Source: Candidatus Oxydemutatoraceae bacterium
Lineage (GTDB): Bacteria; Pseudomonadota; Gammaproteobacteria; Poriferisulfidales; Oxydemutatoraceae
DNA: 64,000 bases
Direction: 5' to 3'
Assembly: GCA_965219575.1 (NCBI GenBank)
Contig: OZ244779.1
Span: forward strand, 396,769 to 460,768
Shown here: positions 7,524 through 62,172 of the stretch, piece by piece
How the letters are laid out: every line of letters begins with the position of its first letter
How positions within the stretch are numbered: position 1 is the first letter of the stretch
Program-made: the position numbers and the translations under genes
Notes under the pieces: model-generated
The model's database searches: none
Told to the model about the DNA's origin: nothing
Seen by the model: the letters and a program-made list of their open reading frames with translations, nothing else

Positions 7524-7784
7524 GGGGCTGTTGAAAAAGTGCGGACATTGCTCAAACCCAATCGCTGTGCGCCATGAACATTTGTAAACCGCCGTAGGGG
7601 CGGACTTGCATGTCCGCCCGTAACGCGTTATGCATGGACGATTTATACATTCATTCATCTGATTTATGGAAACCAAAACCAAATGGCGCAAGCGGTTGGC
7701 ATCGTGCAGAACGGTACTTAAGGGCAGACATCAGAGTTGCCGATTGACCTACCGGCTCAATCGGCGGCTTTATACCGCCCCTAC
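7524..7784. mobile_element. Mosaic MITE/REP element, copy 2 (no right end; overlaps the dsrK stop)
   Basis: GGGGCTGTTGAAAAAGT; REP GTAGGGGCGGACTTGCATGTCCGCCC; ATTTATGGAAACCAAAACC spacer; inverted REP with nested hairpin. Confidence 0.85.
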
Positions 7785-9317
7785 GACTTGGCGGCTGTCT
7801 GATGTCTCTTCCGCTTCCTCGACGGCATCGGGTTCCAGGACGATGGCGTTGCTCACCAGTTGGTGGATACACACGACTTGATCCAGTGTCAGTCCGTAGT
7901 ATGGGAAGATTTTGGTAAATTGGCTCTTGCAGATTGCACAGATTGCTGCCATATGTGTGACACCGCAGTGATCAACGACTTCTTGCAGTGCTTCCATGCG
8001 AGGCAGTGCGCCTTTCACTCTTAGTTCTATCAGGTCGTCGGTTAGCAAGCCACCGCCGCCGCCGCAGCAATAGGTGCCTTCTTTGATTGTTTCCGGCGAC
8101 ATGTCGTAGAAATGGTTGCAACAGGCTTTGATAATCTCGCGGGGTATGGTGAATTGTCCGCCCGGCATATCTCCCATCCGTGAGGCGCGGGCGATATTGC
8201 ACGAATCGTGAAAGGTCAGCACCATATCGTCGTTTTGCGAGGGGTCTAGGGTGAGTTTGTTTTTCTGGATGAGGTCGTGAGTAACCTCGCAGATATGTTG
8301 CGGCACCGGATAATCGGGGTCTAGGAAGTCGAAGGGGCCTGCCAGTGTATTGAGGAAACTGTAGGCGACGCGCCAAGCGTGTCCACATTCGCCGAATATG
8401 ATGCGCCGCACGCCGAGTTTTTGTGCCGCTTCGCGTATTCTCAGTGCGAGTTTTTGCATATTCTCATAGTTGCCGATGAACATACCGAAGTTGGCTGCCT
8501 CGCTGGCATGGGAGCTCAGAGTCCATGATATGCCTGCTTGATGAAATACTTTTGCATAACCGATTAAGCCGTCGACATGGGGTTCGGCAAAAAAATCCGC
8601 CGAAGGGGTCACCAGCAATACTTCGGCACCTGCTTCGTCAAGCGGGAAGCGCACTTTTGCGCCGGTGTCCTCGAAGACTTCCTCTTCCAAGCCTTCGAGT
8701 GTGTCCGCCAATGCCGGTTCGGGCAAGCCTAAGTTGTTGCCGATAACATGGACTTTGCCGATGATTTCGTTGCAGTATTTCTGCCCCTTGCCGATGTGAT
8801 CCATAATCTCTCGGGCTGCCATAGAAATCTCTGCGGTATCTATGCCGTAAGGGCAATATACCGAACAGCGTCGGCATTGCGAGCATTGGTGGAAGTAGCT
8901 ATACCAATCATCGAGCATTTCCTTGTTCATGTCTTCGGCACCGACCAGCCACGGGAAATACTTGCCCGAGAAAGTGTAATAGCGGCGATAGACTTTGCGG
9001 AATAAATCCTGCCGTGCGACCGGCATATTTTTGGGGTCGGTCGTGCCCAGATAGTAATGGCACTTATCGGTACAGGCACCGCACTTGACGCATGAGTCTA
9101 AGAAGACTTGTAGCGAGCGGTATTTGCCGACCAACTCACCCATTTTATCGACCGCAACCTGCTCCCAGTTATCAACCAGTTCGCCCGGAAAGCCTAACGA
9201 TTTCTGAAACTCGGCTTTCGCGGTAAAGGGCTGGCTGTGCTTCATCACATCCTCTTGCAATTTAGGGATCGCTCGGTCTTCTCTATATTTGGGGGTTTTG
9301 AATTCTGTTGTTGCCAT
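7770..9317 (-). CDS. dsrK: DsrK, Fe-S subunit of the DsrMK(JOP) complex
   Basis: CVKCGACTDKC, CSQCRRCSVYCP, GECGH, HDSC, CCGGGGG; start MATTEF after GAGG RBS. Confidence 0.95.
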   Translation of the reverse strand: MATTEFKTPKYREDRAIPKLQEDVMKHSQPFTAKAEFQKSLGFPGELVDNWEQVAVDKMGELVGKYRSLQVFLDSCVKCGACTDKCHYYLGTTDPKNMPVARQDLFRKVYRRYYTFSGKYFPWLVGAEDMNKEMLDDWYSYFHQCSQCRRCSVYCPYGIDTAEISMAAREIMDHIGKGQKYCNEIIGKVHVIGNNLGLPEPALADTLEGLEEEVFEDTGAKVRFPLDEAGAEVLLVTPSADFFAEPHVDGLIGYAKVFHQAGISWTLSSHASEAANFGMFIGNYENMQKLALRIREAAQKLGVRRIIFGECGHAWRVAYSFLNTLAGPFDFLDPDYPVPQHICEVTHDLIQKNKLTLDPSQNDDMVLTFHDSCNIARASRMGDMPGGQFTIPREIIKACCNHFYDMSPETIKEGTYCCGGGGGLLTDDLIELRVKGALPRMEALQEVVDHCGVTHMAAICAICKSQFTKIFPYYGLTLDQVVCIHQLVSNAIVLEPDAVEEAEETSDSRQVVGAV

Positions 9318-9330
9318 AATGTCCTCAGTT

Positions 9331-9535
9331 GGGGCTGTTGAAAAAGTACTGGTGTCGCACAAATCTAACCGCTTGCACTATTTGATTTTGGTTTCCATAA
9401 ATTGTATGGATAAATGTATAAATCATGCGGGCGCAACGCGCTACGGGCGGACATATAAGTCCGCCCCTACGGTAAGTAAACATAAATTGGGTGGGTAAAC
9501 ACATTGTTCTTGCAAAACGGTATTTTTTCAATAGA
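9331..9535. mobile_element. Mosaic MITE/REP element, copy 3 (between dsrM and dsrK)
   Basis: Left end GGGGCTGTTGAAAAAGTA, inverted spacer plus REP, degenerate right end TATTTTTTCAATAG. Confidence 0.8.
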
Positions 9536-9536
9536 T

Positions 9537-10274
9537 CTAGTGCTTTTGTTGTTCCAGTTTTAATGCCCACGCCGCGATATGCCGTTGTTCTCTCGGGTTA
9601 TCCACTTGGTTGCGTGTCGGGCTGAAGAACAAACCCGGTGCATGCAGTAGTTTGCTAAACGGGAATATAATCATCAGCAGGGCGACGAGTGCGAGATGCA
9701 CGACCATCAGTAAGTCCGACGGCAACGGTTGCGGGTCAAGGCGCATCAGCCCTAAAAAGAATATCTTCATTGTCACGATATCCACCGGGTAAAAGAATGT
9801 CATCAAAACGCCGGTTGCACCGATTGCCAATAACAAGATTAGCATCAGGTGGTCGGACGGAGATGAAATATAGCGTACGCGGTCAACGACGATACGCCGC
9901 AACAATAATCCCATCAATCCTATAATCATCATCCAGGACGCATACTTGCCGAAAGGTTGCAACCAATTAACCCAAAACCAAACGGGTTCGGTGAAATAGC
10001 GCAGATGGCGCAGTAAAACCAAGAACAAACCGAAGTGGAATAACCAGCCGAATAACCAAGTCCATTTATTGGACTTGAACAGACTTTCAAAGAAAACGGT
10101 TTCTTTGAACAGACGATAAACGACCCCGCTTTGGGTGGTCGGTGCCGGTGTCGTCGGTATCTTTAGCGGTGCCGGAACTTTCCAATAAAGCCAGATTTTA
10201 TAAGCCAGTCCGCCTATCAATACCGCGGTTGCAATATAAAAGAGCGCGGCATAAGCGATGCTGAGTGCATTCAT
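9537..10274 (-). CDS. dsrM: DsrM, membrane cytochrome b (NarI-like)
   Basis: PLKIPTTPAP, WLFH..LLRHLRYF, FPFSKLLHAPG, PTRNQ; operon position. Confidence 0.95.
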   Translation of the reverse strand: MNALSIAYAALFYIATAVLIGGLAYKIWLYWKVPAPLKIPTTPAPTTQSGVVYRLFKETVFFESLFKSNKWTWLFGWLFHFGLFLVLLRHLRYFTEPVWFWVNWLQPFGKYASWMMIIGLMGLLLRRIVVDRVRYISSPSDHLMLILLLAIGATGVLMTFFYPVDIVTMKIFFLGLMRLDPQPLPSDLLMVVHLALVALLMIIFPFSKLLHAPGLFFSPTRNQVDNPREQRHIAAWALKLEQQKH

Positions 10275-10328
10275 CTGCACGGTCGCTCAAACTTGGGTTG
10301 CCTCAATTCGGCTTAACTCAATCTGTCG

Positions 10329-10661
10329 TCAGACGCAACCTGTGGGCTTAGGCAAGCCGGCGTATTTACACGCTTGTTTGGCGGGACCGTAAGGGAACAG
10401 CTCGTACAAATACTTGCTATTACCTTTTTCCTTGCCCAATCTCTTCCCGATTGCTTTAGTCAAGACTCGAACCGCCGGGGCAATCTGATATTCTTCGTAG
10501 TACTCGCGAAGAAAATTGATGACCTCCCAGTGATTATCCGACAACTCGGCACCGTCGGCCTGTGCCATTGCTTCGGCAAGTTCGGGCTTCCAGTCGTTCA
10601 AGTTGGCAAGATAACCTTCTTCGTCGGTCTCGTATGTTTTACCATCAATATCTAAAGGCAT
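10329..10661 (-). CDS. dsrC: DsrC sulfur carrier
   Basis: C-terminal ACKYAGLPKPTGCV with both conserved Cys. Confidence 0.97.
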   Translation of the reverse strand: MPLDIDGKTYETDEEGYLANLNDWKPELAEAMAQADGAELSDNHWEVINFLREYYEEYQIAPAVRVLTKAIGKRLGKEKGNSKYLYELFPYGPAKQACKYAGLPKPTGCV

Positions 10662-10685
10662 GTTTCTATCTCCTGTTGAATATAT

Positions 10686-10991
10686 CTATAACCATGATTG
10701 TACATTATCGTGATCTGCAACCAGATCGACAAAATCTTCATAGCCGATTAATTTTACACCTTCCAGCACCTGTTTGTCGGAAAAACCGCGTGCTTTAAGG
10801 TCGGGGTTCAGCGCATAAACCGCTAGGTTTCGTTGCATCGCTTGTGTGATCGTATCGGCAAAACGACCACCGGCGGTTGCGCAAACCACGCCGTCTTCTA
10901 TCAGCAACACCGAACCGTCGTCTTGTGCGGTATCTAAACACGACGACAGGGCGTTGCGCTCAAAGGGTGATTTGTTGACGATATGGAGCAT
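10686..10991 (-). CDS. dsrH: DsrH
   Basis: MLHIVNKSPF, LLIEDGV, DLKARG, C-terminal QSWL. Confidence 0.95.
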   Translation of the reverse strand: MLHIVNKSPFERNALSSCLDTAQDDGSVLLIEDGVVCATAGGRFADTITQAMQRNLAVYALNPDLKARGFSDKQVLEGVKLIGYEDFVDLVADHDNVQSWL

Positions 10992-11008
10992 AGACACGAC
11001 GGCATCCC

Positions 11009-11431
11009 TCAAAAACTTAAGATGACATCTTGCTCGGCCATGATCTCGGCTAACTTTTTGCGGTCCACAAAGTGCATCGCACTTTTCTCTTCCCAGTCGT
11101 CGTCTTCGTCCTCGTAGACCAAAGCCTGCAAGTCGTCGGCGGATAGTCCGCGCTCGCTTAACGATTCGGTATCCACATAAATAGTTTTGATATCGTAGTC
11201 GCCCAAAGCACTATAGGTGGGTGAGAAGTTTTTCATTTCTATATCGTCGGTGTCTTGAGATTTCATCAGCTGGTAGACGCCGTCGTCCATAAACACCAAA
11301 CTGACTTGCTGGTCGAAGGCTGCGGCAATCAAGACAACCTCCAGAGATTCCAAAGCATAAATCGTGCCGTAGGGTGCTTTGCGGTTGACATACATAAACT
11401 TCTTAACGGTACCTTCGGGGGCATCACTCAT
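11009..11431 (-). CDS. dsrF: DsrF
   Basis: RKAPYGTIYALESLE, FMDDGVYQL. Confidence 0.95.
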   Translation of the reverse strand: MSDAPEGTVKKFMYVNRKAPYGTIYALESLEVVLIAAAFDQQVSLVFMDDGVYQLMKSQDTDDIEMKNFSPTYSALGDYDIKTIYVDTESLSERGLSADDLQALVYEDEDDDWEEKSAMHFVDRKKLAEIMAEQDVILSF

Positions 11432-11441
11432 GGTTTGTTCC

Positions 11442-11834
11442 TCAATCTCCGAAAGTAATCAGGCGATCCGACTGTATGCCCGCCTCTATCAACTGACCCA
11501 AGCCCGAGATGCGAAAGCCCGGGGCGATATTATCGGTATCCTTGCCACCACGCTTTGCCTCGCCCTCGTCCAGCACACCACGCCGTTGCGCTGCTGCCAC
11601 GCAGACCACTAAATCGAGCTGGTATTTGTCGGCTAACTCCGACCATCGTTGCGATATGTTGCGGTCGTCCTGCGGCGGCACCGATAGGCGGGTGCCGTTA
11701 TAAACCCCGTCGTGATAAAAGAACACTCGGTAAATCTCGTGTCCCTTATCCAGCGCGGCTCTAGTGAACTGGTATGCGGTATCCGACGCTTGGTGCGTAT
11801 AGGGACCTTCGTTTATTAGTACGGAAAACTTCAT
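11442..11834 (-). CDS. dsrE: DsrE
   Basis: FFYHDGV, CVAAAQRRG, SGLGQL. Confidence 0.95.
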   Translation of the reverse strand: MKFSVLINEGPYTHQASDTAYQFTRAALDKGHEIYRVFFYHDGVYNGTRLSVPPQDDRNISQRWSELADKYQLDLVVCVAAAQRRGVLDEGEAKRGGKDTDNIAPGFRISGLGQLIEAGIQSDRLITFGD

Positions 11835-11855
11835 GCCAGTGCCTCAACATTGCGA

Positions 11856-12122
11856 GGGAATGTTGAAAAAGTACTGTTTTCGCTCAACTGCAACCGCTTG
11901 CGCCATGAATATTTACAAACCACCCGTAGGGGTGGGCGGACATGTTAGTCCGCCCCTACTATGTCTGCCCGTACCGTTCGGAATAACCGAAACCGCTTGC
12001 GCCATTTGGTTTTGGTTTCCATAAACTGGATGAATAAATGTGTAAATCGTGCAGGCGCAACGCGTTACGGGCGGACATGCAAGTCCGCCCCTACGGTGCA
12101 TCAAATACTTTTTCAACGGCAC
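11856..12122. mobile_element. Mosaic MITE/REP element, copy 4 (between dsrB and dsrE)
   Basis: Ends GGGAATGTTGAAAAAGTA / TACTTTTTCAACGGCAC, flanked on both sides by TGCGA. Confidence 0.85.
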
Positions 12123-12129
12123 TGCGAGA

Positions 12130-13203
12130 CTAAAAGCGGATATGCGTTGAAGCATTGAGACTCCGGCGGGCACCTAACCAGTTGTCGATATGAAACTTCG
12201 TGAACGGCAGTTCGGTCAGCTCAAAGAAGCGCGGCCAACCGATGCGCTCCACCCAGTCGCTAATTCTTTCCCAGTCCTTGGCATCTTCTTTGTAGGTTTT
12301 CAAAATCTTTTTCACCACCGCAGTCGCCTCGGGCCAGCGCGGCGGGTTGTTCGGTATTCCTGCTGCAACCAATTTTTGGAAAGACGGCTTGCCGCGGGCG
12401 TTGGAATGATTGCCGCCGACCCATATCGCAAGTTTGGTATGCTCGGGGTCGTTGATCTGCATCGGCGGGCAAGGCGGATAACAAGCACCGCAACAGATAC
12501 ACTTCTTCTCGTCGACTTCGAGCGAAGGTTTGCCGTTGACCATCGCCGGGCGTATTGCAGCAACTGGACAACGTGCCACCACCGAAGGTCGTTCGCAGAC
12601 ATTGGAAACCAAGTCGTGGTTGATTTTAGGGGGTTTGGTGTGCTGGACATTGATTGCGATGTCGCCTTGTCCTCCGCAATTAATTTGGCAACACGAAGTG
12701 GTGATGTGTACGCGGTTCGGCATGTTCCAATTCTTAAACTCTTCTATCAGTTCGTCCATCATCGCCTTGACCACACCGGAGGCATCGGTGCCGGGAATGT
12801 CGCAGTGCAACCAGCCTTGGGTATGCGAAATCATTGCCACCGAGTTCTTGGTTCCGCCGACGACAAAGCCGGCATTTTCAAGGGCATCGATGAGCGGCAC
12901 GACTCGCTTCTCGTCGTCGAGCATATACTCTATGTTGCTACGGATCGTAAAACGGACATAGCCGTCGGCATATTTGTCGCCGATATCGCATAGCTTGCGT
13001 AGCGTGAACACATCCAAAATGCGCTGGGTGCCGGCGCGCACCGTCCAGATCGCTTCGCCTTCGTGCGATACATGTTTTAGCACACCGGGACGCGGGTCGT
13101 CGTGGTATGCCCAGTTGCCGTAATTCTTGCGCATCACCGGATGCATATATTGAAACCCGTCGGGACAACCCGACTCAATCGGAGAACGATGCTGTTGTGC
13201 CAT
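12130..13203 (-). CDS. dsrB: Reverse dissimilatory sulfite reductase beta subunit
   Basis: HTQGWLHCD, SCCQINCG, CICCGACYPPCP, NNPPRWPE. Confidence 0.97.
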   Translation of the reverse strand: MAQQHRSPIESGCPDGFQYMHPVMRKNYGNWAYHDDPRPGVLKHVSHEGEAIWTVRAGTQRILDVFTLRKLCDIGDKYADGYVRFTIRSNIEYMLDDEKRVVPLIDALENAGFVVGGTKNSVAMISHTQGWLHCDIPGTDASGVVKAMMDELIEEFKNWNMPNRVHITTSCCQINCGGQGDIAINVQHTKPPKINHDLVSNVCERPSVVARCPVAAIRPAMVNGKPSLEVDEKKCICCGACYPPCPPMQINDPEHTKLAIWVGGNHSNARGKPSFQKLVAAGIPNNPPRWPEATAVVKKILKTYKEDAKDWERISDWVERIGWPRFFELTELPFTKFHIDNWLGARRSLNASTHIRF

Positions 13204-13231
13204 TCTTATTCCTCTATGTTGTGTGTTGATC

Positions 13232-14512
13232 TTAGGCAGTTTCTGCCTGCTTTTCTTCGGACTTTTTCTCGGCTCTGTTCTCGAACCACTTCTTGGCTTC
13301 CTGCTCCCATTCGTCCATGCGAATGTAGGAACTCGTGCGGGGGTCGCTCACCATGTTGGGGTCAACCTCCACGCCGATGCCGTCCAAGAAATTGATCAAG
13401 CCGATACGCTCTATCATCTCGCCGCAGCGCTCGTGTTCGAGACCGTTCTCGGCCCAGAAGTCTATCGTTTCCTCGGCAATCTCAACCAAGCGTTCGTAAT
13501 CCTCTTCGCTTTCCAGCTTCATAAAAGGCACGATGACGGTGCCCATCAAGTCGCCGATTTTCAGCGTGCGCTTGCCGCCGATTAAAATGGAGATGCCGGT
13601 GTCGTCGCCCGGAGATAGAGCTTTGGGCATCACATTCAAGCAATGCATACAGCGGACGCAGTTGCGGTTGTCCACATCCAGCGTGTCGTCGTCTTTCAGC
13701 GACAGTGCTTGGGTCGGACAGCGTGAAATCACATTGTCAACGATATATTGGCGCCCTTTCTTGGCGACATATTCCTTGACTTCGTTTTGATCTACTTTCA
13801 TGTCGTCGCGCCAGGTGCCTATGATGGCAAAATCGGCACGCTCTATGGAATTCATGCAGTCGTTCGGACAACCCGAAACCTTAAACTTGAACTTGTAAGG
13901 TAGCGACGGACGATGCACATCGTCGGTGAAGTTGTTGAGCAAGGTGCGGTGTATACGCATCTCGTCTATGTTGGATTGCTCGCAACGGGCAGCACCTACG
14001 CATGATTGTCCGGTGCGCACGCAGGGACCGGCACCGCCTAGGTCCCAACCGTATTCGTTGATATCGTCAAAAAAGTGTTGTGTGTTTTCGGTGCTGGCAC
14101 CTATAAACATAATGTTGCCGGTCTGACCGTGAAAAGTGACCAAGCCGGAACCCCACTTCTCCCAGCTATCTGCGAGCTTGCGAAGCATGTCGGTCGTATA
14201 GTAATTACCCGACGGCGGCTGCACTCTTAAGGTATGAAATTCTTTGGAAGCAGGGAACGCTGCACCGACTTCCGAAAAGCGCGGGATAATACCGCTACCA
14301 TAACCGAAGACACTCACCGTGCCGCCTTTCCAATAACCCTTGCGGGTCTCGTACGAATGTTCCAGCTGACCCAGTAAGTCGTTTGCTACACCGCTTACGC
14401 GGTCATCTTCGTGTTGATCTCTAAGCCGTTTGATGCCGGAAACAAAACTAGGCCAAGGCCCTTTTTCCAGTTCGTCCAACATCGGTGTGTCATGTGGTTG
14501 TTTTGTTGACAT
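13232..14512 (-). CDS. dsrA: Reverse dissimilatory sulfite reductase alpha subunit
   Basis: GPWPSF, WKGG, CVGAARCE, KFKFKVSGCPNDC, CVRCMHCLN; dsrEFH context indicates the oxidative type. Confidence 0.97.
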   Translation of the reverse strand: MSTKQPHDTPMLDELEKGPWPSFVSGIKRLRDQHEDDRVSGVANDLLGQLEHSYETRKGYWKGGTVSVFGYGSGIIPRFSEVGAAFPASKEFHTLRVQPPSGNYYTTDMLRKLADSWEKWGSGLVTFHGQTGNIMFIGASTENTQHFFDDINEYGWDLGGAGPCVRTGQSCVGAARCEQSNIDEMRIHRTLLNNFTDDVHRPSLPYKFKFKVSGCPNDCMNSIERADFAIIGTWRDDMKVDQNEVKEYVAKKGRQYIVDNVISRCPTQALSLKDDDTLDVDNRNCVRCMHCLNVMPKALSPGDDTGISILIGGKRTLKIGDLMGTVIVPFMKLESEEDYERLVEIAEETIDFWAENGLEHERCGEMIERIGLINFLDGIGVEVDPNMVSDPRTSSYIRMDEWEQEAKKWFENRAEKKSEEKQAETA

Positions 14513-21253: not shown

Positions 21254-22600
21254 TCAACTCGGGTTTGAACCGGAACCGTTGCCCAAGTGCATAAACTTGA
21301 GTTTGTCTTCGGAGTGTAGACCTCTGTAAGCAGGCAACACAGACCATATATCATAAATAGCGGCAGGGGTTGCCATAGACATCGTCAAAGCATCCAGATC
21401 TATCCACTCATATTTTTTATTGTTGTTTGCTACTATTACAACCGATGCACGGTCAAACGCCTGCTTCAGATCCACCGGGGTTATCCCTAGATTGGAAATC
21501 GCCCGACTACCGACGGCAAAATCGTGTCCACAAATCGTCGCTTCGGGATATCGCTGCCTCAAACATGCAACAATATCCAAACTCGACGAGGCACGAGTAT
21601 CATCGGTTTCGGGTCGTCCTTTGAATGCCATACCCAAAATACTTATTTTAGTGTCTTTACCTTTATGCGGAATAATTCCGGTGTGGTCAAGACGATCACA
21701 TACATAGCCGGGAAGAGATTCGTTCAGGGCTCTGCCCTGTTTAATCAACTGTGGCACATAATCATAAGCCTTCAGAGAGGCTTGCAGAATATGTGGGTCT
21801 TTATAGAGACAAGGCCCGCCTACAAAACCGGGATCCGAAATCTGTGTCCTCGCATAACCTATGTTTGCAGCCTTAATAATTTCCCTACTGTCTAACCCCG
21901 CTGCCTCACATAATAATGCAACTTCATTCCCTATCGCAAAATTTAAATCTCTATAACTGTTATCCAACAATTTAATAATCTCGGCACTCTCAAGAGAGGA
22001 AACCATAATAACCGTCGGCGTTATTCTTCTAAAGACCGCCTCTGCTTGCAATGCCGACGCTTCCGTCAAGCCACCGATAATTTGCGGTAAAACAGCTAGT
22101 TCGGCCATTGCATTGCCCTCGATGGTACGCTCGGGGCAATAGGCGAGGCCGAATTGTTTACCACTTTGCTCCAGAGTCTTTTTAACGATTTTACGGGTGG
22201 TGCCTAGTTGCACGGTCGAGCGCAATATGACCAGTGCATCGTCGCTCATATGATTTGCAATCTCTTTTGATACCGACTCTATCATATCCATACGAGGATA
22301 ACCTTCATCGCTAAGCGGCGTACCCACCGTGATGATATAAACCAAAGGTTTTTGTCTATCGTTATCGAGTTCGGATACTTTGGATAAAAAATGCAGTCTG
22401 CCTGCATTCAAGCCACCTTTGATGCGAGGTTCAAAACCTTTTTCTAAAAAGTGTGGTTTGCCTTGCATAAGCATTTTTAATATATCCGAATTTTTCTCTA
22501 CCCCCCAAACATCAAAGCCCCGATCGGACATAATCGCAGCTAAGGTTAGACCGACATAGCCCATACCCACAATACATATTTTTCTATGTTCTATTACCAT
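21254..22600 (-). CDS. UDP-glucose/GDP-mannose family nucleotide-sugar dehydrogenase (WecC-like)
   Basis: GMGYVG, ITVGTP, RSTV, CPER, GGPCLYKDP, GMAFK. Confidence 0.9.
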   Translation of the reverse strand: MVIEHRKICIVGMGYVGLTLAAIMSDRGFDVWGVEKNSDILKMLMQGKPHFLEKGFEPRIKGGLNAGRLHFLSKVSELDNDRQKPLVYIITVGTPLSDEGYPRMDMIESVSKEIANHMSDDALVILRSTVQLGTTRKIVKKTLEQSGKQFGLAYCPERTIEGNAMAELAVLPQIIGGLTEASALQAEAVFRRITPTVIMVSSLESAEIIKLLDNSYRDLNFAIGNEVALLCEAAGLDSREIIKAANIGYARTQISDPGFVGGPCLYKDPHILQASLKAYDYVPQLIKQGRALNESLPGYVCDRLDHTGIIPHKGKDTKISILGMAFKGRPETDDTRASSSLDIVACLRQRYPEATICGHDFAVGSRAISNLGITPVDLKQAFDRASVVIVANNNKKYEWIDLDALTMSMATPAAIYDIWSVLPAYRGLHSEDKLKFMHLGNGSGSNPS

Positions 22601-22865
22601 AGTTTTATCCTTAAAGTATCAATAAAAAATTTCGGCTTTTCAGGAAAATCAATCGCATATATTGTATAGATAATTTCGATTTTCCGGCATCATCATACTA
22701 ATAGATATAGAACACGGAACTCTCTCCTGTTCATAATAGGGAGCATTATATGCTTTCTGCCTGTCTACTTCAATTTATAGTGTCATTTGTTCGTACAATG
22801 TCGCTAGAAATATGGTAAACTATGAGTTTCGTAACCCCCTCATAAATTTACAAGGAGATGTAATT

Positions 22866-23417
22866 ATGAACCAAAACTTCAAACTCAAAAAGTCCATCAG
22901 ATTGATAACCGCTATTTTAGCAGGAAGCATGATGATGGCGGGAGCCGTATCTGCTGACGACTGCAAAATGCGCTCGGCACAGAAAATGTCCGGCGACTAT
23001 ATAATGGCAGCTGGCCACATGAAAGGTGAAGATCATCATCACGGTGATGGCATGATGAAAGATGCCGATCATGGCGATGGCATGATGAAAGATGCCGATC
23101 ATGGCGATGGCATGATGAAAGATGCCGATCATGGCGATGGCATGATGAAAGATGCCGGACACGGCGATGGCATGATGAAAGATGCCGGACACGGCGATGG
23201 CATGATGAAAGATGCCGGACACGGCGATGGCATGATGAAAGATGCCGGACACGGCGATGGCATGATGAAAGATGCCGGACACGGTGACGGCATGATGAAA
23301 GATGCCGGACACGGTGACGGCATGATGAAAGATGCCGGACACGGTGACGGCATGATGAAAGATGCCGGACACGGTGACGGCATGATGAAAGATGCCGGAA
23401 GCATGAAAAAGTATTAA
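22866..23417 (+). CDS. Secreted His/Met-rich tandem-repeat protein (paralog of the downstream HvfA-like precursor)
   Basis: AAGGAG RBS; signal peptide MNQNFKLKKSIRL..AGAVSA; 12 x HGDGMMKDA(D/G). Confidence 0.8.
   Translation: MNQNFKLKKSIRLITAILAGSMMMAGAVSADDCKMRSAQKMSGDYIMAAGHMKGEDHHHGDGMMKDADHGDGMMKDADHGDGMMKDADHGDGMMKDAGHGDGMMKDAGHGDGMMKDAGHGDGMMKDAGHGDGMMKDAGHGDGMMKDAGHGDGMMKDAGHGDGMMKDAGHGDGMMKDAGSMKKY
23040..23399 (+). repeat. Coding tandem repeat, 12 x 30 bp
   Basis: CAYGGYGAYGGCATGATGAAAGATGCCG(AT/GA) repeated head to tail. Confidence 0.95.
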
Positions 23418-23440
23418 AAACCTTTAATCTGCTAACAGGT

Positions 23441-23471
23441 ATAGGGGTGGGTCACATACCCACCCCCTATA
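23441..23471 (+). terminator. Putative terminator hairpin
   Basis: ATAGGGGTGGGT-CACAT-ACCCACCCCCTAT. Confidence 0.6.
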
Positions 23472-23770
23472 TCATGCGCCTGTTGAATGATTGCCACAAT
23501 CAAAACATTTCGACTTAATTGCGATACCCACCCGCAGGGTCGGCCCCTCTACTATTAAGCAAGGGGATACTAGCTCTCCCCTACAACACATATTTCTCTA
23601 GGCTCTGTTGCCATAGTTTTATCTTTCAAATATCAATAGAAAAATTTCGGTTGTTATCAAGAAAATCAACTGATATATTTTATAAATAATTGCGATTTTC
23701 AAATGTCGCTAGAGATATGATAGACTAGGGTTCTAAAAAACCCCTATAATCATATTAAGGAGACGTAATC

Positions 23771-24271
23771 ATGAACAAAAACTTCAAACTCAAAAAATCC
23801 ATCAGATTGGTAACCGCTACTTTGGCGGGAAGTATGACGATGGCGGGAGCTGTGTCTGCCGAAAGCAACATTTTCTCGGTGCAAGAACTACCCGGCGGCT
23901 ACATGCTGGCAGGTTCTCACATGGAGGGTAAATGTGGTGAAGGGCACTGCGGTGAAGGCATGAAAGGTGCCGAAGGGCAATGTGGTGAAGGCAGTTGCGG
24001 TGAAGGCATGAAAGGTGCCGAAGGGCAATGTGGTGAAGGCACTTGCGGTGAAGGCATGAAAGGTGCCGAAGGGCAATGTGGTGAAGGCACTTGCGGTGAA
24101 GGTATGAAAGATGCCGAAGGGCAATGTGGTGAAGGTCAGTGTGGTGGATCCATGAAAGATGCCGAAGGGCAATGTGGTGAAGGTCAGTGTGGTGGATCCA
24201 TGAAAGATGCCGAAGGGCAATGTGGTGAAGGTCAGTGTGGCGGATCTATGAAAAATGCCGAAAGGCGGTAA
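23771..24271 (+). CDS. HvfA-like (EGKCG-repeat) secreted RiPP precursor / metal-binding peptide
   Basis: Signal peptide, F..QELPGGYML linker, 14 EGxCG motifs, six 16-aa (48-bp) units MK(G/D)AEGQCGEGxCG(EG/GS). Confidence 0.8.
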   Translation: MNKNFKLKKSIRLVTATLAGSMTMAGAVSAESNIFSVQELPGGYMLAGSHMEGKCGEGHCGEGMKGAEGQCGEGSCGEGMKGAEGQCGEGTCGEGMKGAEGQCGEGTCGEGMKDAEGQCGEGQCGGSMKDAEGQCGEGQCGGSMKDAEGQCGEGQCGGSMKNAERR

Positions 24272-24306
24272 ATAGAGACTTTTAGCATACTTGCTTAGTC
24301 CGCATA

Positions 24307-24338
24307 GGGGTGGATATTCGGTCCACCCCTGATTTTTT
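24307..24338 (+). terminator. Rho-independent terminator
   Basis: GGGGTGGA-TATTCGG-TCCACCCC followed by TGATTTTTT. Confidence 0.7.
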
Positions 24339-24366
24339 GCGAAACACTCTATAAGAAATAGGCTGA

Positions 24367-25023
24367 TTATTGGTAGCGTAGTTCTACCCGCCTGTTCATG
24401 GCATTCGCATAGGCACTATCTCCCTCTACAGCCAGTTCGCTTTTACCACGACTCTCTGTGCTGATACTGGAAGGAGAGACTCCCATTTGAACCAATATCT
24501 CGGCGACGGCTTGTGCTCTTCTTAAGGCAAGTTCCTGGTTATAACGACTGGACGCTATCGCATCGGAATGTCCCACTAAAATAACGGAAGCACCACTGTT
24601 GATTAGATATTGAGAATGTAACTGCAACAAATTAAGGCTCGTTGCCGGAACGATAATACTTTTATAATCAAAATAGACAATAGCGCGTGGTAGAGCAGAC
24701 CCGGGCGAAGGTCTTCTGACCGGCTCATCCCCATATTCCTCACCGAACTCATCTTCAAATTCCTCTGCGAACTCCTCGTCGAACTCGTCTTCAAATTCCT
24801 CTGCGAACTCTTCATCGAATTCGTCGGCGAATTCTTCGTCAAATGCTTCGTCAAACTCTTCATCGAATTCGTCGGCGAATTCTTCATCCATTTCCTCTTC
24901 CATGGAAATTTCAACGACTTCCTCGTCGTCTTCAAAAAACCAATCCCATGTATTAGACATGGTAGAACAGCCGGACAAAGCGAATACTGCCGATAGACCG
25001 ATTAAAAATAGCTTCAATTTCAT
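24367..25023 (-). CDS. OmpA/Pal-like peptidoglycan-binding lipoprotein with acidic repeat linker
   Basis: Lipobox LSGC; EEFADEFD repeats; YFDY, GHSD..YNQELALRRA, NRRVEL. Confidence 0.85.
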   Translation of the reverse strand: MKLKLFLIGLSAVFALSGCSTMSNTWDWFFEDDEEVVEISMEEEMDEEFADEFDEEFDEAFDEEFADEFDEEFAEEFEDEFDEEFAEEFEDEFGEEYGDEPVRRPSPGSALPRAIVYFDYKSIIVPATSLNLLQLHSQYLINSGASVILVGHSDAIASSRYNQELALRRAQAVAEILVQMGVSPSSISTESRGKSELAVEGDSAYANAMNRRVELRYQ

Positions 25024-25320
25024 TTTATTTCCTTCCCGATAAGTCTGTTTCCCTGCTGGATCGGTCAACCGACCGATTCAAATTATAGGCGATAGTATAA
25101 CATCTATTTTTGTATTCTATAAAAGGCGGGAATTATATAGTTAACTTGACAAAGGAATGTTAAATTAAATCAAGCGACAGTGGCAACACAAGTCGGTCAA
25201 TGAAGCGTCAAAAAGATAGGGTGGGCAAGGCAGGTTCAAAGTCTGTCAAGTTACCCATATAATTCCCCAAAAGGCAAATGATGTTTCCCCTGTGCTATAA
25301 TCCGTGCAAAAGTAAGCCCG

Positions 25321-26784: not shown

Positions 26785-27402
26785 CTAGGCAAACACGATC
26801 CAAGTCGTAGCAATGTATTTTACACCCTTCTGCAAAATCACACCTCTATGTTCGTGGGTCCAAAAAGGAGGAAATAAAAGTAATTTGCCTTGCTCGGGTT
26901 TGATGCGAACTTGTTGAATCAGAAACTCGGTCTCGCCGCCGGGTCCCGGCACATCGTTCAAGTACCAAATAGCAACCAGTTGACGATTGCTGAAATCATG
27001 GCTGCCGCCGTCTATATGCCAATGGTAGTATTCGTCGTTGCGGGTGCGCTGCATACCGTAACCCATATCCTTGAAGCGACCGGAAAAATAAGGGAATGTA
27101 GCCCTAAATTCTCTCATTGCGCAAGCCAAGGATTGAAACAATGCTCGATCTATATCTTTCCATTGTTGTTTGCCGCTAATCAACAAGTCGGTTGACCGTT
27201 TGACGGCTGAATTTTGCACCGCAACTTGACCGACGCATCCGACGAATTGCTCGTCGGTGCTTTCTTCAAAACGATGAATCATCTGCTCGCATAACGATCC
27301 CGAAAGCGCGTTATGCTTCTCAAAAATAAAGGAATTGGGTTTGACCTCGGATAGGGTTTTGAGCGGTATTATAGTTTTTTGACTACACATCGTATGAGGC
27401 AC
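26785..27402 (-). CDS. 2OG-Fe(II) oxygenase (prolyl-hydroxylase-like)
   Basis: HWHID, YLND, GGETEF, FPPFWTHEHRG, KY. Confidence 0.85.
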   Translation of the reverse strand: MPHTMCSQKTIIPLKTLSEVKPNSFIFEKHNALSGSLCEQMIHRFEESTDEQFVGCVGQVAVQNSAVKRSTDLLISGKQQWKDIDRALFQSLACAMREFRATFPYFSGRFKDMGYGMQRTRNDEYYHWHIDGGSHDFSNRQLVAIWYLNDVPGPGGETEFLIQQVRIKPEQGKLLLFPPFWTHEHRGVILQKGVKYIATTWIVFA

Positions 27403-28448
27403 TAGAAAGCGTATCGGGTTATTAAATCTTCGGTGTTTTGCTTGTTTCTATTATTTCCCTCTGCGGATAATTCTAATAGATCGCACACTTTCTCCTGCCA
27501 ATGCTTCTTCGCCGGTAACAATGATGACTCTAATAATGAAAAGTCATTGCTTTGTGTCCAGTTTCGATAGGCATCTATCAACACCGGGCATAACGCTTTG
27601 CGCATAACACTCATGTTCGCTATATAAAAATGTATAGAGGCCGACTTTTGTTGCGAGACTAATGCGGGTAACAGCGCAATGCTGTCGGCTAAATTGTCCT
27701 TCATTGCGCGGATTAGCGGTTCCATTCTCGAGGCACTGCATCGGTGCAATATCCGATGCCAGCCGTCGGGAAGATAACGGTGTGCTTCTAGTTCCCCTAT
27801 CTCGTGCAAAAGAACCGTTTCTGTTTCAACCTCGGTCATCCGCTCGAGGGCATCTTCCAGATTATTGTCAAAATCGTAATACGAGAGTGCCGCCGCCATC
27901 GCATTTTGGGGACGATTCCAGTACCATTCGTTGAGCTTCTCCCAAATCATTCTTTTAAGTGACTCTTTTCTGATGAAAATTGTCTTTGCCAAAGACATGC
28001 CGGGTGGCGCAGTTAGATCCCGGGCGTATTCCTTCGAGGATATCAGCACTCGATAATCTTTATAAAAACTTTGAGATTCATACTCGGCAATAAAAAAGTG
28101 CGGTATTGATTTTGCCCCTATACCACCCGAATAGATATAGCCTTGAGAGAGTAAATGCTCGTTAATCGCCTCGGTATCGAAGGGGTTGAATGTTCGATCG
28201 TTGATACACAAAGGTTGAAAATCTTCATGTTTGATAGACTCCCATTCGGTCTCCCGGCTACATAGCCACGCACCTAACTCCGATTGATCCAGAGATGTAT
28301 CGAAACCGTAGCCTTTCTCCCAACGAAAGTACTCTCGCATTTTCAAAAGATAAACACACATCGTGTAAGTGCCGGCATAACACGCATCGGAGATGTCGCA
28401 GTTATGCTGCACGACATCGCGCAGATTTTTAATAGAGTGATCCATCAT
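27402..28448 (-). CDS. Conserved hypothetical protein (Sfum_1244-like)
   Basis: VQHNCDISDA..CVYLLKMREYFRWE N-terminus, LLHEIGE motif. Confidence 0.65.
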   Translation of the reverse strand: MMDHSIKNLRDVVQHNCDISDACYAGTYTMCVYLLKMREYFRWEKGYGFDTSLDQSELGAWLCSRETEWESIKHEDFQPLCINDRTFNPFDTEAINEHLLSQGYIYSGGIGAKSIPHFFIAEYESQSFYKDYRVLISSKEYARDLTAPPGMSLAKTIFIRKESLKRMIWEKLNEWYWNRPQNAMAAALSYYDFDNNLEDALERMTEVETETVLLHEIGELEAHRYLPDGWHRILHRCSASRMEPLIRAMKDNLADSIALLPALVSQQKSASIHFYIANMSVMRKALCPVLIDAYRNWTQSNDFSLLESSLLPAKKHWQEKVCDLLELSAEGNNRNKQNTEDLITRYAF

Positions 28449-32316: not shown

Positions 32317-32348
32317 TTATTTAGCGTAAGAGTCCAATTAGATTATGT

Positions 32349-32396
32349 GGGGCTATTGAAAAAGTATTGGCATCGCACAACAGAACCGACACTTGT
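32349..32396. repeat. Isolated left end of mosaic element
   Basis: GGGGCTATTGAAAAAGTATTGGCATCGCAC; no partner end found nearby. Confidence 0.65.
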
Positions 32397-32518
32397 GCTA
32401 CTGCAACAAAAAACGATTATTCGGAACAAGTAGCAGGGTTACTCGGCAATAGTCGGCGATTCAATAGCTCCTCTCTGCAATTCTGCGAAGACATTATTCA
32501 TTAAAACCACAACCAGGA

Positions 32519-32773
32519 TTACTTTAACAAACCAACAACGGAGAAAATTACCGCAGATAGTCCTAAAAATATGGCGACATTCATGCCTACAACCCATACG
32601 ATCATTGTGTTTTTTGCATCCGCTATTTTTTCTATTAATCGCGCCTCCTGTTTTGCCAAGTCCGACTTAGTTGCTACTTCTTTGGAACCGACAACATCGG
32701 CCACAGCTTTTTCCGCTCCCTCGTGCTTGACACCTAACTTTGTTAGTACATTGTATAGGGCTATGTTTGACAT
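32519..32773 (-). CDS. DUF1640/CCDC90-like membrane-anchored coiled-coil protein, paralog 1
   Basis: LTKLG..A head, VATKSDL neck, short coiled coil, C-terminal TM. Confidence 0.7.
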   Translation of the reverse strand: MSNIALYNVLTKLGVKHEGAEKAVADVVGSKEVATKSDLAKQEARLIEKIADAKNTMIVWVVGMNVAIFLGLSAVIFSVVGLLK

Positions 32774-33083
32774 TGATATTCCTCAAGATTAAAATTTCAT
32801 TATCTCATAAAAACCCTAATTGACATCAAACGATTTAAGTCCCTTAACGTTGACATTCTCCCTAAATTTAGAACCAATGCTAAAGTTGGTTTTTCCATAA
32901 AAATGCGACGGATTTCTTTATAAACTTTACTACTGATATGAGAAGTTGAAAATCTATAAACTGAGATTATAACAAATACCGATTGACTTATAGGTTAATT
33001 GCTCGCCGGTGCGGATGACCTAGACTACCCAACAAAAATTACTAAATCTTGCTTCTCTATTATTACCGTCGTAAGTTTTGAAA

Positions 33084-33350
33084 CTAGAGATATTTAATTA
33101 CTCCAATAATTGCTACGCCTAATATAACTATTTTCCATGTCATACGCGTCTCTAGCTTTGCTATAGCGGCATCTATGTATGTTTTAGTTGCCATATCTTT
33201 GACATCTGCTTTCGTTTCTGCTTTTAGTTCTATTATATCTGTTTTAGTTGCTACATTTTTTGAGCTGGCAACATCGGCCACGGCTTCCTTCGCTTCGTCG
33301 TGCTTCAGTCCTAATTTAGTCAATGCGTTGTATAGTGCGATTTCTGACAT
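33084..33350 (-). CDS. DUF1640/CCDC90-like membrane-anchored coiled-coil protein, paralog 2
   Basis: Near-identical N-terminus to paralog 1; VATKTDI, ETKADV and MATKTYI necks; C-terminal TM; AGGAG RBS. Confidence 0.7.
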   Translation of the reverse strand: MSEIALYNALTKLGLKHDEAKEAVADVASSKNVATKTDIIELKAETKADVKDMATKTYIDAAIAKLETRMTWKIVILGVAIIGVIKYL

Positions 33351-33569
33351 CTTTATTTACTCCTATATTTATAGTGCTTGCTATTATAGCCATTATAGCT
33401 GAGAAATCGTAATCTTAAATCAACCCCCTAGTGTATTTGCGGGGGCAACGGCATGAAAACCAAGTCTGCAGATGGTCCTAAAAATGGAGGAACTTTGCCC
33501 TTAACTTCATACTGATTTGATGCGCTTGTAAGGTACAATATCACCCTATTCAATTAGTTAAACTTCATT

Positions 33570-36662: not shown

Positions 36663-37325
36663 CTTCGTCTCTCCGTCTTGTGATAAATGCTTTACTTGCT
36701 AAGCCGTCAATTCCGCCGAGTGCTTGATAATATAGCACCACCTATCCGTCATATCAACCAACTCAAGGTAGTTCTTGTTGAACTTGCTCAATTCCACTAT
36801 CACCAACCCAAAATCCTTAGTCAATTCTTTATGCCGATGCTTACGCAGAGTGATTATTGTCTCGTTTATATAGTCCTCTTCATCAAACACCGTGAACCGA
36901 GTAAACACCAGTAAGTGGCTCGGATCAATCCGACTAAACTTTTGTCCACGCTTCATACCATAAGAGTGCAACTGCACCCAATAAGCCAACATTCTACTAA
37001 AGAAGTCCTTTTGAGAATAGCCCTGCATCTCTATGTCGATATTCTCACCGCTATTTAATTTGACATGGAGGTCTAGCACAACTTGTTTGCCACCCGGTGT
37101 GTCCGGTGGGATAGAGCTATCCTGCAGATGTAGCATATCGCCCGATTGGTTTTGTTGATTTGCGGTTTCGGATGCAGGGTTGAGTATCATCATATCCGGC
37201 GCATTATCGGAGGTCGGCAGGAAGCTCTTAATCAACGAGAACAATACTTGCTTATTGATCGAGAAGTATCGCTTAAAGGAAATATCTTTTGTCAAGTCTA
37301 AGTATCCGAGATGTTTTTCATTCAT
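36366..37325 (-). pseudogene. Rpn-family (PD-(D/E)XK nuclease / putative transposase) gene interrupted by one in-frame TAG
   Basis: DISFKRYF, LDLHV, IDIEMQ, IVELSKF, W.Y.IK motifs; TAG at 36699-36701 is in frame with the downstream AKGL-repeat/HTH part. Confidence 0.8.
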
Positions 37326-37490
37326 AGTAAATCTCCTATAAATTGGGTGTAAAACATCTACCCTAAACCCGGTATTGAGTAGGAGGAGAGACAAATGGAT
37401 GAACGGTAGTAAATACATGTTGAACGGTATATTAGAGGGTGATATTCCCTTGCAAAGGAGGGGAATATCCACCCTAAAGGTGCCTTAAGA

Positions 37491-37563
37491 ATACTTTTTC
37501 AACAGCCCCGCCCCGAAAGTATCTGCGCAACGTCACGCCGATTGACCTACCGGCTCAATCGGA
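37491..37563. mobile_element. Right end of mosaic element plus hairpin, upstream of the Rpn gene
   Basis: ATACTTTTTCAACAGCCCC, then GCCGATTGACCTACCGGCTCAATCGG. Confidence 0.8.
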
Positions 37564-37570
37564 GGTTCTA

Positions 37571-38080
37571 TCATAGTTTCCTAGAATCGTAAGCCCAATG
37601 CAACAATGCTTGCCGTTGTCGAGGACGACAATTTATATCGCCGCGTCTGCAATTTTTTTCGACGGCACTTACGTGCCGCTTGATCGCACGCCATCGTTTG
37701 ATCTGTCTTATATCTTCCGAAGGAATACGCCGCCCCATATAATAGCGGCAATACCATTGAAACCAACCGCGCGGGTCGTAAGGATAAATCCAACCTTTCT
37801 TTCTCCATTCTCGCAACGGTAAAGAAGCGTCCACCTTGAAGTAATTTAATGTCGGGTCTTTATGCAGTAGTGCGAGTTTGGCATTCTCGAACCAAGTGTG
37901 CGGAAATTCGTCTTGGCAGTCACACATATATTTGCCGCCGAAAATTCCCAGCTTCAATAACTCTTTAGGGCTGAGTTGCGGTTTGAAATCGTCGTCGAAA
38001 TTACGACCTACCGGTTCCACCAAGTAATAGACATAATTTCTCTGCATCTTGTCGTTGACCACGACTTTTTTCCGTGTCAT
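37571..38080 (-). CDS. Conserved hypothetical basic protein
   Basis: P.ELL.LG.FGGKY, DPRGWFQWYCRYY.GRR, RQI.RW, RQALLHW motifs. Confidence 0.7.
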   Translation of the reverse strand: MTRKKVVVNDKMQRNYVYYLVEPVGRNFDDDFKPQLSPKELLKLGIFGGKYMCDCQDEFPHTWFENAKLALLHKDPTLNYFKVDASLPLREWRKKGWIYPYDPRGWFQWYCRYYMGRRIPSEDIRQIKRWRAIKRHVSAVEKNCRRGDINCRPRQRQALLHWAYDSRKL

Positions 38081-38110
38081 ATATGATCCCAACGTATCGT
38101 GCGCATGTAG

Positions 38111-38463
38111 AAGGCTGTTGAAAAGTACTGTTTTTGCACAACTGCAACCGCTTGCGCCGTGAATATCTACAAACCACCCGTAAGGGCGGACTCACATGTC
38201 CGCCCGCCCCTACGGTTCGTGGATACTTTTTCAACAATCCCTGCGTATCTGCACAATTTTTACCCGATTTATGGAAACCAAAACCACACGGCGCAAGCGA
38301 TTACAGCTGTGCAGAACGACACTTTAGGGCGGACATCAAAATTGCCGATTGACCTACTGGCTCAATCGGCGGCTTTGTTCTGCCCCCACGGCTTGGTGGT
38401 TATTATAAATTCACGGCGCAAGCGGTTACGGTTGCACGCTGACGATACTTTTTCAACAGTCCC
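38111..38463. mobile_element. Mosaic MITE/REP element, composite copy 8 (one left end, two right ends)
   Basis: GGCTGTTGAAAAGTA ... TACTTTTTCAACAATCCC (38241) ... TACTTTTTCAACAGTCCC. Confidence 0.85.
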
Positions 38464-38476
38464 TCGCGCGTGAACG

Positions 38477-51698: not shown

Positions 51699-51776
51699 GA
51701 AGTCAAATATGCGTCAAATTAAAAAGTAATTAATAAAAGATAGGTGTTCTCTTCAAATGGTAGACAGTCTCCAGTC

Positions 51777-52445: not shown

Positions 52446-52446
52446 A

Positions 52447-62042: not shown

Positions 62043-62172
62043 AAATTTTTAGGAATTATATACTTAAATACATAACTGATTAATGAAAGCTATATAACTC
62101 AAGGGTTATTTAAGGTTTTATTTATTTTAATTTTGTGACACAATGATACATAAATAACCTATGGAGATAAAC

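Follow-up and report, generated by a model that had tools for sequence, protein, structure and literature searches.

Within a 64,000-nucleotide stretch of contig OZ244779.1 from a Candidatus Oxydemutatoraceae bacterium (the window, by which we mean the whole stretch analysed), two neighbouring plus-strand genes are the products of a tandem duplication of an HvfA-type precursor gene. Gene 2 (23771-24271; 166 aa) retains the cysteine motifs of that family of peptides made on the ribosome and modified after translation (RiPPs). Gene 1 (22866-23417; 183 aa) has lost all of them and carries instead, behind a signal peptide, a diverged linker and twelve near-identical decapeptides, HGDGMMKDA(D/G). 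The duplication, its polarity, the losses in gene 1, its repeat structure and the absence of modification genes nearby are direct observations. As to function, our tentative preference, held with not quite even confidence, is that gene 1 encodes a secreted, disordered peptide whose histidine, methionine and aspartate residues would bind copper directly, without modification.

The mark of the HvfA/captophorin family is its cysteines, which become copper ligands through the action of an iron enzyme. Here parent and derivative stand side by side, with intermediates in relatives, and one of the two copies has dropped the cysteine chemistry and kept the export signal. If gene 1 binds copper alone, it would show how a metallophore that depends on an enzyme can give rise to one that does not, and the Met-rich tracts found in other family members would suggest themselves as a second ligand system; a RiPP precursor that escapes its modifying enzyme by means of encoded His and Met ligands would be new. 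If gene 1 is a methionine sink instead, copper and oxidant defence would be joined in one gene lineage. As a single occurrence in a single genome, read from its sequence, the locus serves to generate hypotheses and is no discovery; its plausibly new part is gene 1, a predicted His/Met-rich periplasmic repeat peptide of unusual origin.

The duplication and its conventional copy

The pair lies between a divergent nucleoside diphosphate (NDP)-sugar dehydrogenase gene (21254-22600, minus strand; TIGR03026, 330 bits) and a convergent OmpA/Pal-like lipoprotein gene (24367-25068, minus strand; PF00691, 60.9 bits), the latter serving as a boundary marker. The 5' regions of the two copies align with a mean column identity of 78% over 477 columns, and BLASTP matches the two proteins across residues 1-63 (E 1e-22). 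Their signal peptides, MNQNFKLKKSIRLITAILAGSMMMAGAVSA in gene 1 (codons 1-30, 22866-22955) and MNKNFKLKKSIRLVTATLAGSMTMAGAVSA in gene 2, are identical at 26 of 30 residues; we assigned them to the Sec type by eye, from the basic N-region, the hydrophobic core and the VSA before the cut. The linkers SGDYIMAAGHMKGE and GGYMLAGSHMEGK follow in genes 1 and 2, respectively, and in both genes an AAGGAG ribosome-binding site (22852-22857 and 23757-23762) sits 8 nt upstream of the ATG. Each gene is also followed by a hairpin, with approximate ends at 23436-23473 for gene 1 (-27.4 kcal/mol, z -3.9) and at 24305-24341 for gene 2 (11 pairs, 6 of them G-C; -30.5 kcal/mol, z -5.5); neither was equalled by any of 200 shuffles. 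Only the hairpin after gene 2 is terminator-like, with a T run behind it, and we do not call the one after gene 1 a terminator. Homology between the copies stops just past these hairpins.

The duplicated unit also took in the start of the neighbouring gene. The first ~34 nt of the dehydrogenase gene (about 22567-22600), which belong to the unit in the DNA alignment, recur upstream of gene 2 as a dead 5' end (23581-23614, minus strand) that copies the first 11 codons, reads MATEPREICVV and runs into a stop after 14 codons. The live enzyme begins MVIEHRKICIVGMGY, and the intact dehydrogenase genes of three relatives begin MATEHRKICIVGMGY. Together with the 5' alignment, this remnant bears out the original prediction that gene 1 is a duplicated sibling of gene 2, and the signal peptide, linker, ribosome-binding site and downstream hairpins that it had described as common to the two were all recovered. 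Between the hairpin of gene 1 and the dead start lies a spacer of ~107 nt (23474-23580) with no counterpart in copy 2 of the alignment. It was considered as a repeated element of the window and rejected, a 27-mer from it having one match there; 17 nt of it match a related locus, L003. In the hairpin region of gene 1, a 27-nt stretch matches another such locus, L002, downstream of its single gene (96% identity).

These relatives come from a scan of genome contigs in which 85 stretches matched and three (L001, L002 and L003) encode a relative; all three are metagenome-assembled genomes of uncultured candidatus Porisulfidus. Each carries a single HvfA-type gene in the same place and synteny (168, 163 and 143 aa), which makes the duplication specific to the lineage of the window. 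Over the signal-peptide codons, the synonymous divergence (dS) is 0.49 between gene 1 and gene 2 and 0.79-1.40 between gene 2 and the relatives; these values, like the ratios of non-synonymous to synonymous divergence (dN/dS) given below, are rough, resting on ~15-20 synonymous sites per segment. The two genes also share derived synonymous states relative to the three relatives. On this sequence comparison, the duplication arose in the lineage of the window, and not recently. We picture an ancestor with a stand-alone HvfA-type precursor gene between the NDP-sugar dehydrogenase and OmpA-like lipoprotein genes, in which a unit of ~0.9 kb plus the ~107-nt spacer would have been duplicated in tandem.

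The two upstream regions have fared differently. That of gene 1 (22601-22865) includes a 111-nt segment (about 22685-22795) that recurs in each of the three relatives, upstream of its single gene, and is absent upstream of gene 2 (23615-23770). An inverted repeat is kept in both, as GGAAAATC N27 GATTTTCC before gene 1 (22643-22685) and as GAAAATC N26 GATTTTC before gene 2 (23661-23700); it may be an operator, or a chance feature of AT-rich DNA. A promoter scan called a sigma-70-like site upstream of gene 2 (23721-23750) and a minus-strand site inside the 111-nt segment (22773-22745), directed towards the dehydrogenase gene. We give the scan no weight, since it called three sites in total against a shuffle mean of 5.0.

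By its sequence, gene 2 is a precursor of the HvfA/Buf_EGKCG kind (also 'oxazolin' or 'captophorin'), and as such belongs to known biology. It holds 14 EGxCG motifs and 14 Cys in seven 16-aa units (23924-24259), the motif count agreeing with the one originally given; Tandem Repeats Finder describes the array as period 48, 6.4 copies and 94% matches (score 450). The family assignment proposed at the outset was upheld by a profile search, in which gene 2 scored 88.1 bits, past the cut-off of 19.5, against NF050137 (KCGExKCG_twice), the NCBIfam model for 'HvfA family oxazolone/thioamide-modified RiPP metallophore'; the narrower equivalog NF050188 was narrowly missed (89.4 bits, cut-off 95). There are 184 homologues of gene 2 at E<=0.001, and the family statistics given here (Cys counts, motif frequencies) describe the 120 of them that were listed. 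Gene 2 carries N33, F35, L40, G43 and Y44, positions whose conservation is 90% or higher in an alignment of 40 family sequences; the motif that they form, N.F....L..GY, is present in strict form in 71 of the 120 listed matches and in relaxed form in 94. The residue before Cys is mostly Gln (10 EGQCG, against one EGKCG). A beta-helix has been reported for a mid-size Buf_EGKCG family member (PMC12452194); it was not reproduced in our AlphaFold2 model of gene 2, built on the 40-sequence alignment, for which the mean predicted local distance difference test (pLDDT) score is 45.1.

What happens to such precursors is known in some detail. HvfA itself consists of a signal peptide and AEGKCGEGKCG repeats; six of its Cys are modified by HvfBC, and data on the modified peptide are consistent with about one Cu(I) per pair of modifications (PMC11252979). 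Captophorin precursors are modified by an MNIO, HvfB or FonB, acting with a DUF2063-type partner, HvfC or FonC (PMC11252979, PMC13097082). The captophorin class is reported to bear 5-thiooxazoles (PMC13097082), and for HvfA the assignment has been changed from oxazolone/thioamide to 5-thiooxazole (bioRxiv 10.64898/2026.06.05.730506). These reports are in line with the premise of the original prediction that MNIO enzymes modify the Cys residues of this family and that its members bind copper. FonBC is reported to process no variant at the Cys position and to accept Ala, Arg and Thr at position 3, Gln not being among the residues tried (PMC13097082).

The same prediction assumed a DUF692/DUF2063 pair to act on the locus, and in this respect it found no support within the 64-kb window. 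No MNIO, DUF2063 or DoxX was recognized among the 60 window open reading frames (ORFs) of at least 100 aa with NCBIfam, in the 22 of these 60, mainly those left unnamed by NCBIfam, that were re-scanned with Pfam, or, around the three related loci, in 50 ORFs lying no more than 10 kb away. Of 2,583 complete genomes with such a precursor, 67 are reported to have no MNIO (PMC12452194). Gene 2, with its Sec signal peptide, N-terminal motif and 14 EGxCG motifs, would remain a normal precursor, its Cys converted to copper-binding 5-thiooxazoles by an MNIO/partner pair presumed to be encoded elsewhere in the genome.

Losses and a new repeat in gene 1

The repeat array of gene 1 (23040-23399) is more regular than that of its neighbour: Tandem Repeats Finder reports period 30, 12.0 copies and 97% matches (score 594), which is to say twelve 10-aa units HGDGMMKDA(D/G), the number originally counted. 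Every unit supplies one His and two Met per ten residues. Between units, CAT/CAC, GGC/GGT and GAT/GAC alternate synonymously, and GAT/GGA exchanges Asp for Gly. The mature protein (153 aa: G 36, D 31, M 29, K 17, A 15, H 15, C 1) is 19% Met, 10% His and 20% Asp, with 32 acidic and 18 basic residues. Modelled alone with AlphaFold2, gene 1 has a mean pLDDT of 47.8, a helix at residues 3-22 and low confidence elsewhere.

What was lost can be stated exactly. Gene 1 has no GxCG motif, as had been noticed from the start, and its lone Cys, C33, falls outside the repeats; among the 120 listed family matches, the minimum is two Cys and the median seven. Four of the five conserved N-terminal positions have changed (N to K, F to R, L to M and G to D), only the Tyr being kept. 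The HvfA models give no match to gene 1 at E<=1. With neither a Cys motif nor a match to a family model, gene 1 would be unable to receive the modification of its family. By sequence, it is a family member by descent only, a tandem paralogue of gene 2.

Selection appears to have treated its parts differently. Over codons 1-30, gene 1 and gene 2 differ by four non-synonymous and seven synonymous changes (dN 0.059, dS 0.488), and over codons 31-55 by dN 0.45 and dS 0.52; for the latter segment, comparisons of gene 2 with the relatives give dN/dS of about 0.08-0.2. This difference between segments suggests that export was preserved in gene 1 and that the part that marks a precursor was rewritten.

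The new unit can be traced to the old one. The start of the array, EDHHHGDGMMKDA, aligns in codon tables to EGHC-GEGM-KGA in the first unit of gene 2, and the best-aligning ancestral segment for the decapeptide is the EGHCG-EGMKGA half of that first repeat. By alignment, the unit appears to derive from EGHCG-EGMK(D/G)A within an ancestral repeat. The alignment to CGEG-MKDA originally put forward comes close to this; it gives way in one respect, in that the His of gene 1 may be the inherited residue before Cys, so that no replacement of Cys by His need be invoked. Two relatives with the same signal peptide carry units that, compared by sequence, are intermediate forms towards that of gene 1: in P0004 these are EGHHDHGEGMKDG and EGHCGHHGEGMKDG, and in P0005 a single EGKCG precedes four copies of the Cys-free GESMKDAD. 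In the history that we propose, gene 1 would have lost the N-terminal motif and all Cys motifs, keeping a ribosome-binding site and an export signal under purifying selection, and slippage would have expanded one Cys-free unit into the twelve decapeptides.

Searches for relatives of gene 1 returned no homologue. In a word-indexed search of proteins of 100-321 aa, none of 35 candidates scored for the whole protein and none of 11 for residues 1-62, and an exact look-up in a collection of 15 billion proteins contained neither the gene 1 nor the gene 2 protein. A phmmer search against 1.84 billion representatives gave 457 matches at E<=0.001; among the 150 listed, no best stretch begins before residue 29. 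We rejected these matches as homologues, the nine of the 150 that were inspected being unrelated proteins with periodic repeats. The search is insensitive to the short non-repeat part, as known N-terminal relatives (of the P0001-P0005 type) were missed as well. The best ESM Atlas score, 0.83, is a lead only. Known families stayed below their cut-offs: TIGR02953, a pentapeptide MXKDX repeat protein family, reached 20.2 bits (E 4e-4) against a cut-off of 41, and Pfam PF25296 'Decapeptide' 23.8 bits against a gathering score of 45. The PDB chain 7muc_AG (DotG/IcmE) matched by phmmer at E 6e-27, with a period of 10 and an xKDAG core in common; we rejected homology here too, as a product of repeat periodicity, since ~4-5 of 10 positions match per unit and the score accumulates across units. 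No SilE or PcoE family matched at E<=1 in Pfam, NCBIfam or a PDB sequence search, and no EF-hand or RTX model of NCBIfam or Pfam matched.

Possible functions of the gene 1 product

We infer export, expression and metal binding for gene 1, the last from its composition. In the reading that we prefer, the exported, disordered product would serve in the periplasm as a sponge for soft metals, mainly Cu(I)/Cu(II) ions, in which genetically encoded ligands (one His and two Met per unit, together with Asp) would replace those that an enzyme installs in the parent. It is favoured by the His/Met units, by the copper-binding parent family and by the Met-rich tracts that occur beside Cys motifs in six HvfA-family proteins (P0041, P0073, P0099, P0025, P0033 and P0044), with EGMKKGMDEGMKKGM and KMHMRMRMMEQKIDKMMMMME as examples. 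The term 'methionine-rich' occurs in none of the papers on MNIO, bufferin or oxazolin that a term search listed. There is precedent outside the family: SilE, a disordered periplasmic sponge, and its homologue PcoE are reported to bind Ag(I)/Cu through His/Met motifs, and the ligands of CusF are His, Met and Trp (PMC5008109). We count the differences between repeat blocks, synonymous at three codons and non-synonymous at one, as a sign of selection on the repeat.

Several observations weigh against this preference. As gene 1 is a singleton for which protein searches found no homologue, conservation cannot vouch for a function. No copper-homeostasis gene was recognized in the window with the NCBIfam and Pfam scans. 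No promoter-like site was called upstream of gene 1, in a scan that called fewer sites than shuffles do, and the hairpin that follows the gene has no T run. The dN/dS contrast draws on small numbers of synonymous sites, and the linker, with a ratio near 0.9, could equally have come under relaxed selection or have changed in function. Both AlphaFold2 models are of low confidence and lend no structural support. Finally, the composition of gene 1 would suit a methionine-based sink for oxidants equally well.

That last possibility, which the original prediction did not raise, is the strongest rival to a copper sponge, and a serious one, although we consider it unlikely overall. Gene 1 would then be a sacrificial peptide like MrpX or BcrX, its Met oxidized by hypochlorous acid (HOCl) or other periplasmic oxidants and re-reduced by MsrPQ. 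The MXKDX proteins BcrX and MrpX provide the precedent, being described as Met-rich peptides that scavenge HOCl with MsrQP homologues (PMC8315932). Each unit of gene 1 contains MMKDA, which fits an M-x-K-D-x pentapeptide, and the mature protein has 29 Met in 153 residues. Of the three families that matched in NCBIfam at E<=1, TIGR02953 alone is one of small secreted peptides, and an Atlas cluster auto-named 'Pentapeptide MXKDX repeat protein' ranks third (0.81). Yet the TIGR02953 score is half of its cut-off, and the Atlas score, below 0.9, is again a lead only. A few Buf_EGKCG clusters are reported to hold oxidored_molyb or ferric-reductase genes (PMC12452194); these would be the domain families of MsrP and MsrQ, a tie to MsrPQ that we draw ourselves, and neither MsrP nor MsrQ was recognized in the window with NCBIfam or Pfam. 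Gene 1 also descends from an HvfA-type and not an MrpX gene, and a sink would have no need of the His found in every unit, which the MKDA-type units of P0005 and P0041 do not have.

A second explanation, which we also hold to be rather improbable, is that gene 1 is a redundant, drifting duplicate and its array a neutral product of slippage, open only since 30-nt units cannot shift the frame. It is a singleton, its linker has a dN/dS of about 0.87, the conserved family motif is gone and no promoter-like site was called before it. The array can be read through on its other strand as well, for 151 aa, so that an open frame comes cheaply in such repeats. The part of gene 1 outside the array speaks differently: its 57 non-repeat 5' codons contain neither a stop nor a frameshift, and the signal peptide has changed by four non-synonymous against seven synonymous differences. 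A dS of ~0.5 implies that the start, ribosome-binding site and 183-codon frame have long survived intact, which counts against drift. Three of the four codons that vary between repeat blocks do so synonymously, and it is gene 1, and not gene 2, that has kept the full ancestral upstream region.

More doubtful still is a role in binding hard cations (Ca2+, Mg2+, Fe or Zn), or some other envelope function of acidic charge, with no copper handling. The excess of acidic over basic residues (32 against 18) and the DxD and GDG spacing in each unit would suit it. Fusions to Ca-binding EF-hand domains occur in family members P0042, P0065, P0086 and P0114 and are described for the family (PMC12452194), and an acidic repeat tract also marks the OmpA-like lipoprotein encoded at the conserved flank. 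However, the EF-hand and RTX models do not match gene 1, what it gained is Met and His, ligands of soft or borderline character, and its ancestral family binds copper.

The last alternative, raised in the original prediction, that gene 1 is a new class of substrate modified at His or Asp by an MNIO-type or other oxygenase, is very unlikely: some MNIOs are reported to act on Asp, Asn or Phe, and gene 1 keeps a family signal peptide of the kind suggested, for Buf1, to help recognition (PMC12452194), but the MNIOs for non-Cys residues form small, separate enzyme clusters (PMC12452194), the Cys position is indispensable for FonBC, the one enzyme of this group put to the test (PMC13097082), four of the five conserved N-terminal residues are lost, and no MNIO, DUF2063 or DoxX was recognized in the window or up to 10 kb from the three related loci.

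Genomic surroundings and known systems

The OmpA/Pal-like lipoprotein has, as its N-terminal half, a long acidic tract of E/D/F repeats (EEFDEEFDEAFDEEF...). Its gene adjoins the HvfA-type gene in the window, in L001 (10832-11500) and in L003 (10751-11425); in L002, a transposase gene takes its place at that flank. As L001, L002 and L003 each hold a different transposase near the HvfA-type gene, the region is prone to rearrangement. Mobile or selfish elements are also found in the window, where 36699-39358 and 62161-63120 encode an Rpn-family nuclease/transposase, a Fic-domain protein and an IS1595 transposase. Three adjacent minus-strand genes (49335-53199) encode a 787-aa protein (weak HATPase_c_3 match), a 222-aa protein outside any known family and a DNA methylase-like protein of 250 aa; together they could be a restriction or defence island.

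About 2.5 kb from the locus, a 2-oxoglutarate-Fe(II) oxygenase (PF13640) is paired with a DUF6866/Sfum_1244-family protein (26785-28448, minus strand). The pair is also present in L001 and L003, where there is no gene 1, and so it is not specifically linked to gene 1. Elsewhere in the window, a reverse-type dissimilatory sulfite reductase cluster (dsrA, B, E, F, H, C, M and K; 7770-14512, minus strand) and a fused SoxYZ-like carrier (1515-2324, minus strand) mark the marine organism as a sulfur oxidiser. Rfam and tRNA scans drew a blank over the whole window, including a 1.25-kb stretch (32317-33569) that is also free of ORFs reaching 100 aa.

Set against known systems, gene 2 resembles the precursors variously called HvfA, Buf_EGKCG, oxazolin and fontiphorin in its Sec signal, its N.F....L..GY motif and its paired EGxCG motifs in 16-aa units. 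It departs from them in having mostly Gln before Cys, in scoring under the equivalog cut-off and in having no MNIO, DUF2063 or DoxX gene adjacent. Gene 1 shares with this family its ancestry, signal peptide and locus, and differs in lacking any Cys motif and any match to the family models. Its likeness to DotG/IcmE is confined to the level of the repeat, the protein, its size and its context being unrelated. With MrpX and BcrX it has more in common, as these too are small secreted proteins of M-x-K-D-x repeats and gene 1 has 12 MMKDA; unlike them, it has a ten-residue period with an extra HGDG half, stays below the TIGR02953 cut-off and descends from an HvfA-type gene. The closest functional parallel to the copper-binding peptide that we favour would be SilE/PcoE, which are secreted, SilE being disordered when metal-free, and bind metal unmodified through repeated His and Met (PMC5008109). 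Gene 1 likewise offers one His and two Met per ten residues and has no fixed fold predicted, at low confidence. It has no sequence kinship with SilE, whose MxxH/HxxM motifs are reported to turn helical (PMC5008109); in gene 1 the putative ligands stand in a Gly/Asp-rich HGDGMM spacing and would have come from a RiPP precursor.

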